Shown piece by piece: positions 1 to 6,926 of a stretch of 6,926 nucleotides of DNA. A program made the translations under genes and the position numbers. The notes under the pieces are model-generated. The model ran no database searches, had not been told where the DNA came from, and saw only the letters and a list, made by a program, of their open reading frames with translations. The first letter of the stretch is position 1. Each line of letters starts with the position of its first letter. Source of the stretch: a virus (Duplodnaviria; Heunggongvirae; Uroviricota; Caudoviricetes); IMG/VR virus record IMGVR_UViG_2690316188_000015. One strand, given 5' to 3'.

Positions 1-536
1 AATGCCGAACCACCACGACAGCATGGTACCAGCAGGATCCCCGCGTTATTCGGGATATACGGGAGCAGTTTTTTGGCAATATGTAAGCCCTGGCCGACAC
101 AGCCGTACTGCCCTTTGCTCAGGTCTGCCTTCGGATGATTCAGCGTACTCATATCCTGCACATCATGCAGGCAGTGGTCGGCCGGAATAATATCGTTATA
201 TCTGCATGCAGCCCCACCCGGCGTAACTGTACTGCGGCGCGCCAGCTGTTTAATGCGCGGATCCGGAGCATCGTATGAATCCGGCAGCGGAAGCCCTTCA
301 CCGTAAGCCATGGCATTGGACTGCCCGGCCAGTACGATGACGTAGTACCAATCCGGCTCAGTTGCACCACTGACCACCACATCACCTTCTGCTGTAATCG
401 CCTGCATCAGGGTATAAGGGGTTATGGCCACCGGACTACCAAACGGCTGCCAGCCCTCTTTCAGTTTGTGTGTCAGCTTTTCCGCAAGGTCTGACGGCGA
501 CGCCGCCCTGACAACATCATAATGTTTAAATGTCAT
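1..536 (-). CDS. NanS-p-like protein: N-terminal DUF1737-like region plus SGNH/sialate O-acetylesterase domain; partial, 3' end beyond window
   Basis: ATG at 536-534 preceded by GGAGG (minus strand). Frame is open for 178 codons to the window edge. Translation starts MTFKHYDVVRAASPSDLAEKL and contains the GQSNA motif typical of SGNH esterases. Not in the ORF track because it has no stop in the window. Confidence 0.75.
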   Translation of the reverse strand, partial: MTFKHYDVVRAASPSDLAEKLTHKLKEGWQPFGSPVAITPYTLMQAITAEGDVVVSGATEPDWYYVIVLAGQSNAMAYGEGLPLPDSYDAPDPRIKQLARRSTVTPGGAACRYNDIIPADHCLHDVQDMSTLNHPKADLSKGQYGCVGQGLHIAKKLLPYIPNNAGILLVPCCRGGSA

Positions 537-720
537 TATTCCTCCCGGCCGGGATAGTGTATTAAATCAGATATGGAGTGGGCTGTAGTCCGGAAGCCTG
601 AATGACACACGGGGACTACAGCCCAAGAAATGAAAAAAGGCCACGCAGTTGCGCAGCCTGATAAACCCTGGTTAAAATCCACACGATAACAACACAACAA
701 TATCAGTATCTCATGCTATT

Positions 721-746
721 GCCCGAACCCATTCGGGCATTTTTTA
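721..746 (+). terminator. Rho-independent terminator, plus-strand orientation
   Basis: Hairpin GCCCGAA-CCCA-TTCGGGC (721-738) followed by A then TTTTTT (740-745) on the plus strand. Confidence 0.5.
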
Positions 747-750
747 CCCA

Positions 751-778
751 TAAAAAATGCCCCTCCGGAGAGGGGCAT
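751..778 (-). terminator. Rho-independent terminator, minus-strand orientation, downstream of the TerB-like gene
   Basis: 9-bp stem ATGCCCCTC / GAGGGGCAT with CGGA loop (757-778), followed on the minus strand by TTTTTT. Confidence 0.6.
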
Positions 779-943
779 GTTTGCATGCACATTCTTTTTC
801 TTGCATGGTGCCGGGTGCCTCCCGGTGAATTCAGTATCAGCACCTGAATCCGCGATTATCCCATATACCTGGTTGCTGATCGCCCCTCCGCACAGGGGGA
901 TTCACCATGCAGAAGTGTTTTTAATAAACAGCAAACAAAAAAA

Positions 944-1111
944 TCAAGCATTATGCAGGCTGTTTCTTTTTATCACCGGCCACAGCAATACCACAATGCC
1001 GCAGACCAGCACCCCATCCGCCAGCACCGACATGATTCTGCTGGTGAGATCCACCATCACCACCAGAAACAGCAGGAGTGCAGCCACAGCCAGGCGCAGT
1101 TTTACCGTCAC
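944..1111 (-). CDS. Candidate small hydrophobic membrane peptide (55 aa from GTG), possibly translationally coupled to the upstream TerB-like gene
   Basis: GTG start overlaps the TerB-like stop (GTGA overlap). Translation VTVKLRLAVAALLLFLVVMVDLTSRIMSVLADGVLVCGIVVLLWPVIKRNSLHNA has two hydrophobic segments. Below the ORF-track size cutoff. GC-rich region with several open frames, so it may be spurious. Confidence 0.25.
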   Translation of the reverse strand: MTVKLRLAVAALLLFLVVMVDLTSRIMSVLADGVLVCGIVVLLWPVIKRNSLHNA

Positions 1112-1539
1112 AGGTGATTCTCCAGACGAAGACCCAGAACACCGGCAATCTCTTCCAGCACCTTGCGCTCTTCCGGCTCAATTTCGCCGTCTGCCTCCGC
1201 AATGGCCACCGCCACATCCAGCACATCTTCCGCTTCACGCGTATCGTGTTTCACATCCTCAATCTCGCGTAACGCGGCACGACGACCAATTTTAAAATTG
1301 GTATCCAGCTGACCGATAATGGTTGCGCTAATCGCATTAATTTCCGAGGTAAACGCAGACAACGCAGGCTGATTACGTAAGACCTGTTCGATCTTCGCTT
1401 TCTCGGATGCCTCGCATTCACCATCTGCATAGGCCACCAGGTATGCAGCGTTAATCACCGCCTGTGCCAGATCGCGTTTCTCAAACTTTTTAATTTCCGC
1501 TGCCGCTCTGCGGGTTTTCTTTTTGAAGATTCCAAACAT
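1108..1539 (-). CDS. TerB-like (tellurite-resistance TerB family) protein, 143 aa
   Basis: ATG at 1539-1537 with AGGAAC Shine-Dalgarno 7-8 nt upstream. Protein MFGIFKKK...ADGECEASEKAKIEQVL...EADGEIEPEERKVLEEIAGVLGL has the paired ADG/DG plus acidic-helix organisation of TerB. The ORF-track N-terminal extension (start 1611) lacks an RBS. Confidence 0.75.
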   Translation of the reverse strand: MFGIFKKKTRRAAAEIKKFEKRDLAQAVINAAYLVAYADGECEASEKAKIEQVLRNQPALSAFTSEINAISATIIGQLDTNFKIGRRAALREIEDVKHDTREAEDVLDVAVAIAEADGEIEPEERKVLEEIAGVLGLRLENHL

Positions 1540-1671
1540 CGTGACGTTCCTTTGGGTGGGTGAGCCAACGCCCGGGAGCGATCTGCCCACAGAGAAAGTC
1601 ACACTGACCACTCCGTAAGCTCACCCCCGAAAGGCTCTGTGGTTGATATGCGCCGGGCGTGGCGCAGATAC

Positions 1672-1695
1672 AAAAAAGGCCCGCCGAAGCGAGCC
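1672..1695 (-). terminator. Rho-independent terminator just downstream of the tRNA cluster
   Basis: Minus strand reads GGCUCGC-UUCG-GCGGGCC followed by UUUUUU: 7-bp stem with one G-U pair and a UUCG tetraloop, about 14 nt past the tRNA-Arg 3' end. Confidence 0.6.
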
Positions 1696-1708
1696 TGGAA
1701 AATAAGTG

Positions 1709-1785
1709 TGGCGCGTTGTAGTGGAGTCTAACCACTGACCGATTGCTTAGAAGGCAATTGCTCTGTCCGACTGAGCTAACAACGC
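1709..1785 (-). tRNA. argO: tRNA-Arg (anticodon UCU), 77 nt with encoded CCA
   Basis: Manual fold: acceptor GCGTTGT/ACAACGC, D-stem GCTC/GAGC, anticodon stem ATTGC/GCAAT with loop CTTCTAA, CCA encoded. The T-loop TTAGACT is atypical. The symbol is assigned by position in the phage tRNA trio, not by sequence match. Confidence 0.7.
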
Positions 1786-1798
1786 ATGATGCTGATAA

Positions 1799-1875
1799 TG
1801 GACCGCCATCGGGGACTTGAACCCCGCGCAGCCAGCTTCGAAGGCTGGCGCTCTGTCCCGATGAGCTAATAGCGG
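1799..1875 (-). tRNA. argN: tRNA-Arg (anticodon UCG), 77 nt with encoded CCA
   Basis: Acceptor CCGCTAT/ATGGCGG (one G-U pair), D-stem GCTC/GAGC, anticodon stem CCAGC/GCTGG with loop CTTCGAA, T-arm CGGGG-TTCAAGT-CCCCG, CCA encoded. Symbol assigned by position only. Confidence 0.75.
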
Positions 1876-1884
1876 TATGTAATA

Positions 1885-1960
1885 TGGTGGCCCTTGCTGG
1901 ATTTGAACCAGCGACCTGGCGATTATGAGTCGCTCGCTCTCACCACTGAGCTAAAGGGCC
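1885..1960 (-). tRNA. ileZ: tRNA with CAU anticodon, ileX/ileZ-like (tRNA-Ile2 reading AUA after lysidine modification; formally a Met anticodon), 76 nt
   Basis: Sequence GGCCCTTTAGCTCAGTGGTGAGAGCGAGCGACTCATAATCGCCAGGTCGCTGGTTCAAATCCAGCAAGGGCCACCA closely resembles E. coli tRNA-Ile2 as recalled; canonical cloverleaf with T-loop TTCAAAT. Confidence 0.8.
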
Positions 1961-1988
1961 GAGCCAAAAAATAATAATCAGATGAAAA

Positions 1989-2702
1989 TCAATAATCAAG
2001 CCCTTGCCTGGATACATATCTGTCTGGCGGGAAGCCATAATAGCGGTGAAATACAGAAATAAAGTAGGACCTGCTTGAATAACCGCATTTTTCTGCTATA
2101 GCCTGTCCATATCCATGCCGGGAACATAACATATTTACAGCAACACGCATCCGCTCTTCCAGCAACAAGCGACTGAACATGCCCCCTTCATTTTTCAGTT
2201 TTGTCTTTAACAAACTCTCACTCATATGCAACTGTAGAGCAATCGCACCAAGCGTCCAGCTTGCTGATATATCTGTCTGAATTATCGCCCTGACTTTGGC
2301 ACTTATGCTGGATAAACATCCACTTAAAAACAATGACATCCGTTCATCTGTTTCAAACAGAGACAGGCAGGCCATCATAAGAAACATATCCGTGGCCTCT
2401 CCGGAAAATCCCTGGCTGGTAATTAAAGCCGCAGCCAACGCAGGATTGTTGGGTTCCAGCAACAGGTAAAGCGGAATGTCAGTCAGACGAGTCCTCGTCA
2501 GCTTATGCTGACTTTCCAGATATTGACTTACGACGGATTCGCTTATATCGACAATTTTAACTTTGCCATAATGCATAAGGAAAAGCTCCCTGATGCATTT
2601 GGTGGCCAGAACAACTGAGCCTGGCTTAAGTGACAACGTATCCTTTTCAAGAAAAATATTAATTGGGGAGCAAACCATGATAACTGAACAGACAACAGCC
2701 AT
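1989..2702 (-). CDS. AraC/XylS-family transcriptional regulator (AppY/YdeO/GadX-like subfamily), 237 aa, intact copy
   Basis: C-terminal region has both AraC-type helix-turn-helix motifs (WTLGAIALQLHMSESLLKTKLKNEGG... and AIAEKCGYSSRSYFISVFHRYYGFPP). N-terminus MAVVCSV resembles AppY-type regulators. Low GC. Confidence 0.85.
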   Translation of the reverse strand: MAVVCSVIMVCSPINIFLEKDTLSLKPGSVVLATKCIRELFLMHYGKVKIVDISESVVSQYLESQHKLTRTRLTDIPLYLLLEPNNPALAAALITSQGFSGEATDMFLMMACLSLFETDERMSLFLSGCLSSISAKVRAIIQTDISASWTLGAIALQLHMSESLLKTKLKNEGGMFSRLLLEERMRVAVNMLCSRHGYGQAIAEKCGYSSRSYFISVFHRYYGFPPDRYVSRQGLDY

Positions 2703-2737
2703 TATAATTTTACTTTCATTAGCAATTGGTTAGCTCA

Positions 2738-2768
2738 ATTATAGCCCCAAAAGGTAAATTATCATCAA
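2738..2768 (-). promoter_or_regulatory. Possible sigma70 promoter for the AraC-family gene: -35 TTGATG, 19-bp spacer, -10 TATAAT
   Basis: Perfect TATAAT on the minus strand about 36 nt upstream of the ATG. The -35 is weak and the spacer is long. An identical copy lies at 4129-4159 upstream of the truncated paralog. Confidence 0.3.
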
Positions 2769-2821
2769 CACATAAGCAAAGGACTGACAGGTGTCGCCCC
2801 CCCACCAGCCGCCCATTCACC

Positions 2822-2850
2822 ACAAATAAAAAGCCTTCAGGACTGAAGGC
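2822..2850 (-). terminator. Rho-independent terminator overlapping the stop codon of the 65-aa ORF
   Basis: Minus strand reads GCCTTCA-GTCC-TGAAGGC followed by TTTTTATTT. Confidence 0.6.
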
Positions 2851-3034
2851 GTCTGTAACAACCGCACTGATAGTCTGCCAGACCCGCCATAACAAGCTGG
2901 GTCAGTATTAACTGGCAGCGTTCGCGTGAAAGGTAAGTATTCTGCGCAATCTCCCCGACTGTCGCCGGTTCGGTAACGCTTAATTCATCAAACACAACTC
3001 TGGCGGTTTCTGTCATATCCTGCTGTTTCAGCAT
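2837..3034 (-). CDS. Small hypothetical protein (65 aa, or 59 aa from the second ATG), possible helix-turn-helix DNA-binding protein; copy A
   Basis: ORF with AAGGG about 9 nt upstream of the ATG. The only difference from copy B in this ORF is a synonymous change (GTT vs GTC Val at codon 20). Segment TVGEIAQNTYLSRERCQLILTQL is HTH-like. Function unknown. Confidence 0.5.
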   Translation of the reverse strand: MLKQQDMTETARVVFDELSVTEPATVGEIAQNTYLSRERCQLILTQLVMAGLADYQCGCYRRLQS

Positions 3035-3158
3035 GTCTTTTTACCCTTTCCGGTTAACGTGACATACCAATAACTCTTGTCTAAAAAGCCAGCAAGATAA
3101 AAAGCCAGTATTCACGACCACCAGCGTGTTTACTGTACTGCACCAGGTTTACAGGTAC

Positions 3159-3180
3159 AAAAAAACCGCTCAGCGGCGGG
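3159..3180 (-). terminator. Weak candidate terminator in the tail of repeat copy A
   Basis: Minus strand has a short CCGC/GCGG stem followed by TTTTTTT. The homologous site in copy B has a 5-bp stem. Confidence 0.35.
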
Positions 3181-3312
3181 TTTAAGTTGTGTGGCGAAGT
3201 AACCACTCTTAACACACTAATAGCATTTTTGTTATAACACAAGTAGCTCATTCAGTATTTTTAGAATCTTGACTTTCTTAAGCACGGAGAACTCTGAATA
3301 CCAAACATAAAA

Positions 3313-3546
3313 TCAATTATCTTCCAGGCCGGATGCTATCAACGAAAGCCTCTCAAAAAACGCTGTAGCAGCCTTGTCCAAAGTTGAATAAGTACTGTAT
3401 TCTCCGTGTTCGGGACCAACCACTACCCATGGTCGTCTTTTTGGGATTCGGGACTTCTCAGAAATCACTGTTCCAGATATACCAATATCAATTGTTACAC
3501 CTGTTATTATTTTCTCTTCATCTCTTTCCCTGAACTCAATTGCCAT
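3313..3546 (-). CDS. Hypothetical 77-aa ORF in the unique segment between the two repeat copies; possibly a gene remnant
   Basis: ORF-track ORF starting 19 bp inside the unique segment. No Shine-Dalgarno (A-rich upstream). No family recognised. Confidence 0.25.
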   Translation of the reverse strand: MAIEFRERDEEKIITGVTIDIGISGTVISEKSRIPKRRPWVVVGPEHGEYSTYSTLDKAATAFFERLSLIASGLEDN

Positions 3547-4093
3547 AAATGCCGTTTTTTTTTATGAACATGCCCCCTTCATTTTTCAGTTTTGTCTTTA
3601 ACAAACTCTCACTCATATGCAACTGTAGAGCAATCGCACCAAGCGTCCAGCTTGCTGATATATCTGTCTGAATTATCGCCCTGACTTTGGCACTTATGCT
3701 GGATAAACATCCACTTAAAAACAATGACATCCGTTCATCTGTTTCAAACAGAGACAGGCAGGCCATCATAAGAAACATATCCGTGGCCTCTCCGGAAAAT
3801 CCCTGGCTGGTAATTAAAGCCGCAGCCAACGCAGGATTGTTGGGTTCCAGCAACAGGTAAAGCGGAATGTCAGTCAGACGAGTCCTCGTCAGCTTATGCT
3901 GACTTTCCAGATATTGACTTACGACGGATTCGCTTATATCGACAATTTTAACTTTGCCATAATGCATAAGGAAAAGCTCCCTGATGCATTTGGTGGCCAG
4001 AACAACTGAGCCTGGCTTAAGTGACAACGTATCCTTTTCAAGAAAAATATTAATTGGGGAGCAAACCATGATAACTGAACAGACAACAGCCAT
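3536..4093 (-). pseudogene. Truncated paralog of the AraC-family regulator: N-terminal domain plus first HTH, residues 1-176 identical to copy A, then 9 unrelated codons and a stop
   Basis: Identical to copy A through ...KLKNEGGMF, then diverges exactly at the repeat boundary (3565) into IKKNGIYGN-stop. The second HTH is missing. Confidence 0.7.
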
Positions 4094-4212
4094 TATAATT
4101 TTACTTTCATTAGCAATTGGTTAGCTCAATTATAGCCCCAAAAGGTAAATTATCATCAACACATAAGCAAAGGACTGACAGGTGTCGCCCCCCCACCAGC
4201 CGCCCATTCACC

Positions 4213-4241
4213 ACAAATAAAAAGCCTTCAGGACTGAAGGC
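4213..4241 (-). terminator. Rho-independent terminator after the 65-aa ORF, copy B
   Basis: Identical to the terminator at 2822-2850. Confidence 0.6.
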
Positions 4242-4425
4242 GTCTGTAACAACCGCACTGATAGTCTGCCAGACCCGCCATAACAAGCTGGGTCAGTATT
4301 AACTGGCAGCGTTCGCGTGAAAGGTAAGTATTCTGCGCAATCTCCCCGACTGTCGCCGGTTCGGTGACGCTTAATTCATCAAACACAACTCTGGCGGTTT
4401 CTGTCATATCCTGCTGTTTCAGCAT
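4228..4425 (-). CDS. Small hypothetical protein (65 aa), copy B; protein identical to copy A
   Basis: Same ORF as 2837-3034 within the duplicated core. Confidence 0.5.
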   Translation of the reverse strand: MLKQQDMTETARVVFDELSVTEPATVGEIAQNTYLSRERCQLILTQLVMAGLADYQCGCYRRLQS

Positions 4426-4548
4426 GTCTTTTTACCCTTTCCGGTTAACGTGACACACCAATAACTCTTGCCGAAAAAGCCAGCAAGCTGAAAGACCTGT
4501 ATTAATAACTACCAGCACATTTAACGCACTGCGCTACTTTGCGGGCAC

Positions 4549-4571
4549 AAAAAACCCGCTCAGAGGCGGGG
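4549..4571 (-). terminator. Candidate rho-independent terminator between the CPBP gene and repeat copy B
   Basis: Minus strand reads CCCGC-CTCTGA-GCGGG followed by TTTTTTG, about 150 nt downstream of the CPBP stop. Confidence 0.5.
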
Positions 4572-4711
4572 TCAAGCTATGCGGCGAAATAACCACTCTT
4601 AACAGCATACCTGATTTTTTACGTACGTAAATGCTTTGCCGTGCATATTTTTCATGCAAATGTCACGTCCTGCTATTTTTCAGTCTTATAAATTTAAAAC
4701 CATAGAAAAAA

Positions 4712-5530
4712 TCAATTATGTTTTAAAAATGGATAGGTAAAGAATAACAAGTGACACAGATTCAAACCAAAATGGAAAAGGGTGGCAACCCACAAACGCC
4801 CACTCCACATCCATGACAATCCATACACAACACCAGATAACGTGGCAAATAATACAAGTAAAGCACCACCTGAATAGTGATAAAAACCAAACAACAAAGC
4901 CGCCACAATTAATGCAACCAATGGAGACGTTACTTCTGATAGCCGTGATTGAATATACCCTCTAAATAATGATTCCTCTGCCAGAGACACAAAAAACAAA
5001 TTAGCCAATATAAACTCTGGCAACCACTCAGGAAAATGAATCTCTGGCTTTAATCCACCAAAAAAAACAGCCAAAAACAGGATAAGAGGAACAGAGAGCG
5101 ACAGAGCCCCCCACTTCCACAAAGACACTTCTGATTTTACTTCTTTTTTAAACAAAGAAGATGTACACAGGACTAACAAAAATGGCACCAGCGCTTTATC
5201 AAAATTAAAATACATTGTATAGGGAGTACTTTGAGGGCCAACAGTAACAGAATTTAGCACTACAGGATTGTGAAACCCTGGCCATAGATGGAAAGATAAT
5301 GCTATGGCTGATAAAACTATGCCAACTTCATATATAGATTTAGCCCAGGCGTTATATTTCCAGTTGAACTTCAAAATAATAAAAAAAACGATTGTAGCAA
5401 CAAAAAATAACACCGACCAATCAATAATATCATTAAGCACAGCCAGGACAACAGACACCGTCAACAATGAAAAAGCCACTACCTTATGCCAACTGAGAGT
5501 TGACAGTGACAGTACTAACACAATCCACAT
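4712..5530 (-). CDS. CPBP-family (CAAX protease / Abi-domain, PF02517-like) intramembrane metalloprotease, about 272 aa
   Basis: ATG at 5530-5528 with AGGAG and a 5-nt spacer (the ORF-track GTG at 5536 is rejected). Polytopic hydrophobic protein with all three CPBP motifs: EESLFR (EExxxR), FGFYH (FxxxH) and HFGLN (HxxxN). Low GC, roughly 38% by eye. Confidence 0.8.
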   Translation of the reverse strand: MWIVLVLSLSTLSWHKVVAFSLLTVSVVLAVLNDIIDWSVLFFVATIVFFIILKFNWKYNAWAKSIYEVGIVLSAIALSFHLWPGFHNPVVLNSVTVGPQSTPYTMYFNFDKALVPFLLVLCTSSLFKKEVKSEVSLWKWGALSLSVPLILFLAVFFGGLKPEIHFPEWLPEFILANLFFVSLAEESLFRGYIQSRLSEVTSPLVALIVAALLFGFYHYSGGALLVLFATLSGVVYGLSWMWSGRLWVATLFHFGLNLCHLLFFTYPFLKHN

Positions 5531-5681
5531 AAGCACTCCTTTTATTTAATGATGAAGATTGATTATCAATATTTTCAATTCACCAGGCAACATTTTATCT
5601 ACCTTCCACAATACATGACCATCAAAAAATAAACATGTTAATTATAAACACAGAAAACATAACCCTCATCACTATATATCC
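5531..5681 (-). promoter_or_regulatory. AT-rich region immediately downstream of Q; expected location of the Q-dependent late promoter and Q-utilisation site
   Basis: Positional inference from lambdoid phage organisation. Several -10-like hexamers are present (TATAAT, TAAAAT) but no element could be assigned confidently. Confidence 0.3.
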
Positions 5682-6053
5682 CTACCGCATATCCATATCT
5701 AACCGGACATTCAGAGCCATAAGCATTCCTTCAATAATACCTTCCGCTTTATAAAGCCTTTTACCAATAAGCCCATCAGAACATCTATGCTTACGTGCAA
5801 GAGCCATAAATGTCATTCCACCTACGTAATAATCCACCAACAAATCGTGCAAATACTGATTATTCTTGTTTAATCGTGCCATACAACCACAAATTATCAT
5901 GGCGTCATCATCAGAACACTGAGGACGTGATTTCACTTTAGTCGGGATTAATCCTTTAAAACCAGCAGCTATCGAGGGCCATGTTACATCTTCATGATTA
6001 TTTGCTGCCCATGCCCCCCATCGCTCAAGAACCATCTGGATATCACGCGCCAT
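5682..6053 (-). CDS. Q: Late-gene antiterminator Q (QuuD/phage-82-type), 123 aa from the ATG
   Basis: Protein [25 protein letters not shown]...[14 protein letters not shown]... closely resembles E. coli prophage QuuD-type Q as recalled. GAGGTGG Shine-Dalgarno before the ATG at 6053; start overlaps the end of rusA. Confidence 0.85.
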
Positions 6054-6414
6054 CGTTACCACCTCTGATTTCGTAAATCTTCACGCCCAGCCGTCCACCT
6101 GGCACAGGCTGACCGCGCACAATATTGATTTCATCAAACTGCTCGTCATCAATGAGCACTTCCGCATGCGTCAGCGCATCCAGCGGTGCTTTCAGAATGT
6201 TGTCCAGGTCACGGCGGCGCTTATCCGGTGGTTCTGCAATAATTTTTATTGCCAGCCGTCCGGACAGGCTTAATTTCAGCCGCTGCTGGCGAACAATAAG
6301 CGCCACAGCCCGGCGATAACGCTCACCGGCTTTTGATACAAAATATGTGCTGCCACGACGTCGCCAGTAGGTGTTCACCGTCGGCGGGTAAGGCAAAACA
6401 AACTCTATACGCAT
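6043..6414 (-). CDS. rusA: RusA-family Holliday-junction resolvase, 123 aa
   Basis: AAGAGG Shine-Dalgarno 6 nt before the ATG at 6414. Motifs [19 protein letters not shown] and GGRLGV match the RusA family (compare DLP12 RusA ...PDRRRRDLDNLQKAAFDAL...). Position immediately upstream of Q is typical. Confidence 0.85.
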
Positions 6415-6426
6415 CAGTAACCTCTT

Positions 6427-6926
6427 TTACCCGAGCACGCCGGTTGCAAAAGCGTGATCAAGAAAACGAAAAATTAAATCAACCTGGGAACCATGCTTTT
6501 CTTCGAACGCCAGCGGATCCGCATGAAGCTCGTTGTGATGCTCCCGACACAGCGGTAGCGTGAAAATATCGTGGGATTTTGTTCCCATTCCACCCTGACC
6601 ATGACCAATCAGATGATGAGGATCGTCCGCTGGCTTACCACAACACGCACACGGCTGTGTCTTTACCCAGCGTGTGTATTTCTCATTTACCCAGCGGCGA
6701 CGTTTAGGTCGTTTCATGAAGGATTCCGGAGACTCCGGATCAACGGCAATGCTGACCACCGTCTTTTCCTGTGGTGGGTTCTGTTGCTGGTGGGTGTGAG
6801 GCGGTAGCGCAATATTTTTTGTGCGCTGCTTCAGTATGCTGGTGGCGGTCTGTTCTCCCGGTATGATGTCGCTTTCACGGTATACGGAGCGGATTTTTTC
6901 CGCCGGTAATCCCAGAGAACGACGCG
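6427..6926 (-). CDS. DUF968-like protein with HNH-like Cys/His cluster; partial, 5' end beyond window
   Basis: The reading frame is open from the window edge (6926) to the stop at 6427. The ORF-track GTG at 6759 is only the first in-window start codon. Motif CACCGKPADDPHHLIGHG...CREHHNELH is present. Confidence 0.65.
   Translation of the reverse strand, partial: RRSLGLPAEKIRSVYRESDIIPGEQTATSILKQRTKNIALPPHTHQQQNPPQEKTVVSIAVDPESPESFMKRPKRRRWVNEKYTRWVKTQPCACCGKPADDPHHLIGHGQGGMGTKSHDIFTLPLCREHHNELHADPLAFEEKHGSQVDLIFRFLDHAFATGVLG

Follow-up and report, generated by a model that had tools for sequence, protein, structure and literature searches.

A truncated psr gene that may mark a non-homologous join between two kinds of Escherichia coli lambdoid prophage

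A late-region stretch of an Escherichia coli lambdoid prophage carries two copies of a gene for an AraC-type regulator, one intact and one (psr') that leaves the reading frame of the gene after codon 176, and this raises the question of how the short copy arose and whether its product could act on the full-length regulator. In this study, we report that the 185-codon open reading frame is, with a probability of roughly 0.55, a gene remnant, left behind by a single non-homologous join that linked late regions from two kinds of lambdoid prophage. A sequence-only reading had taken the short copy for a truncated paralog of the adjoining AraC-type gene in which the N-terminal domain is kept, and possibly for a dominant-negative form or a decaying pseudogene; the first description agrees with our results, and the two proposals are considered below.

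The window, by which we mean the whole stretch of 6,926 nucleotides that was analysed, lies between the antiterminator gene Q and the lysis genes, in the stretch that is occupied by stx in Stx phages, as seen among phage records. On the minus strand, the order after Q is CPBP-65aa-psr'-WYL fragment-65aa-psr-tRNAs (Table 1). In a PADLOC scan, none of the CPBP, WYL, 65-aa, psr and TerB proteins matched a defence system.

Table 1. Features of the 6,926-nt window, from Q-proximal to Q-distal genes, followed by signals and segments
Feature	Position	Strand	Remarks
DUF968 gene fragment	6427-6759	-	runs off the window
RusA	6043-6414	-	
Antiterminator Q	5682-6062	-	sets the entire module within the late operon
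CPBP/CAAX (Rce1-like) membrane protease gene	4712-5536	-	cassette of type 1, lying between Q and 65aa-psr
65-aa ORF, copy B	4228-4425	-	phrog_331; weak TrmB-like winged-helix match; protein identical to copy A
psr', truncated Psr-family AraC-like regulator copy	3536-4093	-	176 native codons, 9 out-of-frame codons, stop
77-aa ORF, 3' fragment of WYL-domain gene	3313-3546	-	residues 129-205 of the 205-aa S88 protein
65-aa ORF, copy A (WP_000917737.1)	2837-3034	-	hairpin after it at 2850->2833
Intact psr-family regulator, 237 aa	1989-2702	-	100% identical to WP_000301785.1
Three tRNA genes	1709-1960	-	
TerB-family gene, DUF3927 gene, then start of SASA-family esterase gene		-	last in transcription order
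Terminator-like hairpin after 65-aa ORF, copy B	4241->4224	-	
Promoter-like site for psr', ATGATA-16-TATAAT (10/12)	4156->4129	-	~35 nt upstream of the ATG
Promoter-like site for intact psr	2765->2738	-	identical to the psr' site
First terminator-like hairpin downstream of psr'	3165-3177	-	upstream of the copy-A 65-aa gene
Duplicated segment, copy A	2174-3099		offset 1391
Duplicated segment, copy B	3565-4490		psr codons 1-176, intergenic promoter-like site, 65-aa ORF, ~65 nt upstream
Non-homologous junction	3555-3565		T9 run of the WYL fragment 3555-3563; orphan A 3564; psr T 3565 (= 2174)
Homologous crossover interval	4219-4365		site-by-site comparison with loci L001 and L002

The intact regulator scored 50.3 bits for HTH_AraC (cut-off 26.6) and 39.8 bits for HTH_18 (cut-off 33.6) in Pfam, and its residues 134-233 aligned with the GadX domain 3MKL (E = 7e-19). 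The AlphaFold model had a mean pLDDT of 73, with values of 80-94 across most of the DNA-binding domain. Confidence was moderate in the N-terminal domain (residues 1-130, pLDDT about 55-78), which was modelled with five beta-strands, all within residues 5-53, and then helices that reach residue 129. The DNA-binding domain was modelled as seven helices, namely H1 (133-143), H2 (151-157), H3 (162-171), H4 (176-194), H5 (200-205), H6 (211-222) and H7 (226-232). This domain superposed on GadX 3MKL with an rmsd of 1.3 A and a TMt of 0.87, and a Foldseek search matched the full-length model to Rns and CsvR (E = 1e-9). The intact copy has the C-terminal domain of ~100 aa, with two helix-turn-helix motifs and seven helices, that defines the AraC/XylS family. 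Beta-strands followed by helices in the N-terminal domain are shared with GadX/GadW and the Rns/CsvR/ToxT subfamily, although in the window this domain is shorter (~130 aa) and not recognisable by sequence.

When PsrA (ECs1087, Sakai Sp4) was taken from an upstream in-frame ATG, 215 of the 237 residues (90.7%) of the intact regulator were identical to it. The gene psrA is ecs1087 in the Sakai prophage Sp4 and encodes a prophage-encoded secretion regulator of EHEC O157:H7 (PMC13502914, 2026); PsrB is reported to be 90% identical to PsrA (PMC10877973). Sp4 has the order ECs_1083 (RusA), ECs_1084 (Q), ECs_1085 (CAAX protease), ECs_1086 (small ORF), ECs_1087 (psrA) and three tRNAs, and the window shares this order from RusA to tRNAs of the ileZ/argN/argO type, its left arm being 98.3% identical to Sp4 DNA. 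The close identity to PsrA and the location at the same lambdoid prophage site as psrA both assign the gene, as far as sequence and gene order can tell, to the Psr family, at the canonical Q-CPBP-65aa-psr-tRNAs position of the late region. The GadX-type AraC DNA-binding domain is likewise common to the intact copy and PsrA/PsrB. The window allele is ~9% diverged from PsrA, with which the direct comparison was made, and it is accompanied by a second, truncated copy that Sakai Sp4 does not have. PsrA and PsrB activate gadE, yhiF and hdeA, through which LEE type III secretion is repressed (PMC10877973). By analogy, the intact downstream copy, whose type-2 context (described below) is unaltered, would supply the roles known for PsrA and PsrB, that is, activation of gadE and hdeA and indirect repression of LEE.

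The psr' product has 185 aa and matches the 237-aa regulator without a difference over residues 1-176, as the sequence-only reading had stated (176/176 residues, and 801/801 nucleotides for the DNA). The tail that follows, IKKNGIYGN, is read through the poly-A run into the WYL-gene fragment, out of the WYL frame, and bears out the earlier count of nine junction-derived codons; the stop codon of psr' and the WYL 3' fragment overlap by 11 nt. These nine unrelated codons replace residues 177-237, which hold H4-H7. The Pfam scan, the 3MKL (GadX domain) alignment and the helices of the AlphaFold model, on which the account of the lost helices rests, agree that psr' keeps the N-terminal domain and H1-H3 (HTH1; helices within residues 133-171) and lacks H4-H7 including HTH2, so the second helix-turn-helix is missing, as had been proposed. 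The remaining HTH_AraC hit (residues 141-173) scored 23.3 bits, below the cut-off of 26.6, and there was no HTH_18 hit. The complete two-HTH DNA-binding domain that defines AraC/XylS proteins is absent from psr', which has half of it, unlike GadX/GadW and Rns/CsvR/ToxT, and we infer that psr' cannot work as a normal AraC-type activator. In the AlphaFold model the cut after residue 176 coincides with the N-terminal end of the long helix H4, which ties both helix-turn-helix subdomains together. Since this core helix is lost, a stable fold is doubtful and the predicted product is probably unstable.

The two copies belong to a longer duplicated segment. Positions 2174-2974 and 3565-4365 are identical at 801 of 801 positions with an offset of 1391, a match far beyond chance. 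Beyond the 801 bp the copies differ by 6 mismatches up to 3099/4490, then fall to ~84% similarity to near 3214/4604, and are unrelated past that point. Such a pattern might suggest a simple duplication in place of a 1391-bp unit followed by divergence or decay, for which the constant 1391-bp spacing and the identity of the first 801 bp could be cited. The units are, however, unrelated over their last 350-450 bp, with 3215-3564 holding the WYL fragment and 4605-4955 the 3' end of the CPBP gene, so that head-to-tail homology does not extend across the whole 1391-bp units. The differences between the copies also form a clean switch from type-2 to type-1 parental alleles instead of random decay, and both flanks are 100% identical to separate natural phages. 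With the distal third of the units unrelated and copy B an allele mosaic, the simple tandem duplication was rejected, and we leave it next to no credence.

The two parental types are both known from complete E. coli genomes. Type 1, with the order Q-CPBP-65aa-psr-tRNAs, is found in O145:H28 RM13514, 2013C-3342 and Sakai Sp4, and type 2, Q-WYL-65aa-psr-tRNAs, in Z1323HEC0108 and S88. Window positions 1-3563 are identical at all 3563 positions to the type-2 prophage of Z1323HEC0108 (NZ_CP148374.1). Positions 3565-6926 are 99.8% identical to the type-1 prophage of 2013C-3342 (NZ_CP027766.1), in which psr is intact; the 8 differences are confined to 3573-3629, a stretch in which copy B has the copy-A allele, and 3630-6926 is 100% identical. 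Read along the minus strand, the type-1 arm of the window thus comprises RusA, Q, the CPBP protease, the 65-aa ORF and psr codons 1-176, and the type-2 arm the WYL 3' end, the 65-aa ORF, intact psr, the three tRNAs and terB onward.

The arms meet at a single point. The WYL parent reads GCCG(T)9/CGTTTCC and the psr parent AAGCGAC/TGAACATG (breakpoints marked by a slash), and the window reads GCCG(T)9-A-TGAACATG, a string also given as GCCG(T)9-A-TGAACATGCCCCC, with one orphan base and no microhomology. The WYL-domain gene is cut at its A8/A9 run. An allele switch is visible further towards Q. The alleles of copy B are of type 2 (WYL-phage) up to at least position 4218 and of type 1 (CPBP-phage) from 4366 on, a switch that falls inside the 65-aa gene and indicates a homologous crossover inside the shared 65aa-psr module.

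The non-homologous join between the two prophage kinds could have come about in two ways. In one, a type-2 prophage would first have gained an internal duplication of ~1.39 kb and would then have had its Q-proximal arm swapped by homologous recombination with a type-1 phage within 3630-4365. In the other, a single illegitimate exchange would have taken place between two co-resident or co-infecting phages; this one-step history requires a parental allele that was not observed, the best type-1 parent differing from copy B at the 8 sites near the junction. Both histories fit the data, and we do not choose between them. Because no substitution separates the copies, the event appears to be very recent.

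The same observation bears on the label of decaying pseudogene, which did not hold. The psr' gene has lost an essential part of its coding sequence, as a pseudogene would, yet it has accumulated no mutations relative to the functional copy (0 substitutions over 801 bp), and its flanks are 100% identical to natural prophages. From these comparisons, the join is best taken for a very young recombination event, or possibly an assembly error, and psr' does not appear to be an evolved, decaying or selected paralog. The fragment is most likely selectively neutral.

An assembly or scaffolding error would mean that two separate prophages, one of type 1 and one of type 2 and each with an intact psr, had their contig ends joined or a one-base gap 'closed'. 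Both termini of the window are identical to those of a public scaffold (L059), which suggests that the window is a complete contig, or a complete scaffold, from a draft assembled from short reads. L059, listed as a viral contig, consists of three contigs joined by single Ns, and it shows false tandem copies of psr and of a 591-bp segment; it was considered as an independent natural tandem psr array and rejected, its joins being literal Ns, that is, scaffold gaps. The junction in the window consists of one orphan base between segments that each perfectly match separate natural prophages, and illegitimate recombination in E. coli does not usually leave a 1-nt filler with no microhomology, which counts against a real rearrangement. 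Draft contigs also often break inside psr, with partial proteins that end at residues 169, 180, about 182 and 219, but none of the partial psr proteins at contig ends stops at residue 176. Against an artefact, the window itself contains no N, and a De Bruijn or overlap misjoin needs shared sequence at the join, where there is none. In related assemblies, contig ends cluster around 2801-2886, position 1 and position 6926 instead of 2174/3565 or 3563, which weighs somewhat against a plain joining of contig ends. In none of 44 loci was the WYL-side end the edge of a repeat.

The absence of the junction from all collections searched fits an artefact as well as a very young remnant. It was found in none of 5,426 complete E. 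coli genomes and was absent from phage records. Two exact junction strings and one gapped string had no match in the viral contig collection, the two exact strings had none in genome or metagenome contig collections, and no record was found of the exact 185-aa product. As a positive control, the uninterrupted sequences across the breakpoints were recovered from 52 viral contigs for psr and from 44 for WYL. Among the collections searched, the truncated junction form was thus seen in this window alone. Taken together, we regard an artefact as a serious rival explanation, though the less likely one.

Other alleles that encode only the N-terminal part of Psr do occur. They comprise frameshifts in a G5 run (residues 173-174) and in a poly-A run close to residue 166, a stop codon directly behind residue 176, and fusions following residue 189. 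The lesions all differ and each is present on 1-3 contigs, against hundreds of contigs with intact alleles, so that such alleles appear to be rare, independent and sporadic, and none looks like a conserved class. Neither recurrence nor conservation, by which maintenance of the truncated form across lineages would be recognised, was found.

As for expression, the sequence-only reading had noted that copy B keeps the upstream region of the intact gene. This is true for the 272 nt before the ATG, which are identical in both copies and include the promoter-like site and the terminator-like hairpin that closes the preceding 65-aa gene; the leader and the start codon are identical as well. Transcription of psr' is plausible given the identical promoter region. 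After induction, the region would also be read from the Q-dependent late promoter, in keeping with established lambdoid biology. From its own promoter-like site, leader and start codon, together with the Q-antiterminated late transcript, psr' is probably transcribed, and its transcript would be expected to end at the hairpin at 3165-3177. The homologous psrA is known to be transcribed in lysogens (PMC13502914).

These signals also give some ground to the proposal that psr' is a functional anti-activator, in which a stable fragment would heterodimerise with the full-length Psr of this and other prophages, lower its activity, and so tune gadE/hdeA acid resistance and LEE secretion. The fragment shares its promoter-like site, leader and start codon with the intact copy, whose relative psrA has transcripts in lysogens. 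In AraC, ExsA, ToxT and Rns, dimers form through helices of the N-terminal domain (PMC4552939, PMC8329261), the full-length model aligns with full-length Rns and CsvR, and a class of small proteins that act as anti-activators of AraC-family regulators is known, the ANR proteins (PMC4983702). The N-terminal domain was, however, modelled with moderate confidence only, and an incomplete DNA-binding subdomain without the core helix H4 makes misfolding or proteolysis likely. The form is unique, and copy B, which is too young to have diverged, offers no substitutions by which selection could be gauged; other alleles cut down to the N-terminal part turn up sporadically, as described above, in contrast to the intact ones. 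A literature search returned no usable documented case of a dominant-negative AraC-family N-terminal fragment. Fragments of a dominant-negative type are reportedly published for ToxT and XylS. A dominant-negative role is conceivable from general AraC-family knowledge of N-terminal dimerisation, nothing found here supports it, and we consider a functional anti-activator quite unlikely. The stronger proposal, that psr' is real, expressed and stable, and would heterodimerise with several Psr regulators of co-resident prophages as a natural phage-borne anti-activator, has a very slim chance of being correct. If it were true, psr' would lower GadE-dependent acid resistance and relieve the repression of LEE type III secretion in the host. 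The likeness to ANR proteins is one of concept, both being small proteins without DNA-binding that would bind and block an AraC-family regulator; ANRs are dedicated proteins conserved across many pathogens (PMC4983702), whereas psr' is a unique 185-aa fragment of the regulator itself.

As the probable remnant of a non-homologous join of two common prophage modules, psr' adds one more case to a familiar type of by-product and is largely ordinary. The window shares with the exchange of moron cassettes in lambdoid late regions the alternative CPBP or WYL cassettes placed before a common 65aa-psr-tRNA module. Late-region mosaicism is further reflected in allele switches at homologous stretches, as in the window, and in the module deletions of Sakai Sp6 and EDL933 CP-933N. 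Unlike a clean module swap, however, the junction in the window is non-homologous and leaves a partial gene duplicate. The locus is an example of lambdoid prophage late regions that shuffle accessory genes and leave fragments behind, here in a module with a known regulator of EHEC virulence and acid resistance. Partial psr 'paralogs' in draft STEC assemblies may, in the same way, stem from recombination scars or from joins made in scaffolding. Given a real junction and a stable fragment, psr' would provide a ready-made natural construct for asking whether Psr proteins act as dimers.

A more distant relative is PatE (z0321, OI-8), a prophage-encoded AraC-like activator of acid resistance, which resembles the window's regulator in overall architecture and in its N-terminal motif (MA..CSVI...). 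Over its full length, the regulator in the window is 37% identical to ECs_0287, which lies at the end of Sakai Sp1 and is a presumed PatE ortholog, its orthology to z0321 being based on position only. PatE differs in being located at a prophage end instead of the late region that follows Q. Among the cluster names, none carried a Psr or PatE label.

Two points concern the annotation of psr genes. A review (PMC10877973) puts psrA at z1789/OI-50. No psr homolog was present in the late regions of Sakai Sp6 and re-sequenced EDL933 CP-933N, or in Sakai Sp10, and z1789/OI-50 was rejected as the psrA site in favour of ecs1087 in Sp4, as given in PMC13502914. The annotated Sakai ECs_1087 has 195 aa and lacks a conserved 42-residue beta-strand region, and psr genes are better annotated from the upstream ATG, which gives a product of 237 aa.

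The point at which the window joins the two prophage types, Q-CPBP-65aa-psr and Q-WYL-65aa-psr, coincides exactly with the A run of the WYL-domain gene, in its nine-base form (see table). In type-2 prophages, this run shows an A8/A9 length polymorphism on the coding strand. With eight A's the gene encodes an intact 205-aa protein, a form found in 42 of the 44 viral loci, and a run of nine or more, for example in L002, L048 and L081, causes a frameshift.

Comparison of Psr protein homologs showed that independent broken psr alleles are concentrated at residues ~166 to 189 (P0036, P0038, P0040, P0047, P0048, P0029 and P0030). Frameshift sites among these disrupted alleles include a G5 run and, separately, a poly-A run. 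In P0038, a stop was located immediately past residue 176, with the rest of the HTH encoded in an overlapping ORF. Fusions past residue 189 were of two different kinds, and in one of the two the tRNA cluster was deleted. The CAT-anticodon tRNA of the window's three-tRNA cluster was called Met by ARAGORN; in RefSeq it is Ile (ileZ) or Met, varying by genome.

Coordinates of the features identified in the window and related loci
Feature	Location	Strand	Remarks
AgvB (anti-GcvB sRNA)	window 684-745	+	Rfam match above gathering score, 96.5 bits
STnc100 sRNA	window 746-939	-	Rfam match above gathering score, 142.7 bits
Three-tRNA cluster	window 1709-1960		Arg-TCT, Arg-TCG, CAT-anticodon tRNA
65-aa ORF	window 2837-3034 and 4228-4425		WP_000917737.1, phrog_331
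WYL A/T run	window 3555-3563; L002 5337-5347; also L003		
C5 run	window 3572-3577	+	psr codons 172-174
CPBP/CAAX (Rce1-like) membrane protease cassette	window 4712-5536		
WYL-domain cassette	L003 5114-5731		
Sakai ECs_1087 as annotated	L012 28804-29391		start M43, 195 aa

Alternative cassettes are found between Q and the 65aa-psr module. Some prophages carry a CPBP/CAAX (Rce1-like) membrane protease gene there and others a WYL-domain gene, and neither product matched the PADLOC defence models. The conserved 65-aa ORF sits before psr in both architectures compared (L001, L002, L003 and L007), and it may regulate psr or act as its partner. It gave a weak TrmB-type winged-helix match, and it is followed by a terminator-like hairpin of its own. 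In the Sakai annotation it appears as ECs_1086, of 80 aa.

Annotated starts of psr (window 1989-2702) are in conflict, with M43 (195 aa) used for Sakai ECs_1087 and in many other records, versus M1 (237 aa) in PGAP. Three features of residues 1-42 favour the 237-aa form: they are conserved at the protein level in homologs as distant as 37-38% identity, the structural model places beta-strands there, and phrog_1450 spans them. The better Shine-Dalgarno-like sequence, GGGAG, is nevertheless that of M43.

The public viral scaffold L059 (IMGVR_UViG_2695420847_000016) was found to consist of three contigs scaffolded by single Ns, at 4571 and 7492, and these joins make two psr-tRNA modules, and likewise a 591-bp segment present twice, look like tandem copies. 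Both termini of L059 are identical to those of the window. In related draft assemblies, contig ends accumulate at window positions ~2801-2886, 1 and 6926, which therefore mark repeat edges common to co-resident prophages.

The entire 65aa-psr-tRNA module is absent between the Q-downstream region and terB in both Sakai Sp6 (L006, 14263-14389) and EDL933 CP-933N (L010, ~21770-22010), and a search of Sp6 and of a 50-kb stretch of EDL933 revealed no psr homolog. The latter result conflicts with a review placing psrA at z1789 on OI-50/CP-933N (PMC10877973). A 2026 paper identifies psrA as ecs1087 in Sp4 (PMC13502914).

The AgvB and STnc100 matches were both placed between the esterase gene and the DUF3927 gene.
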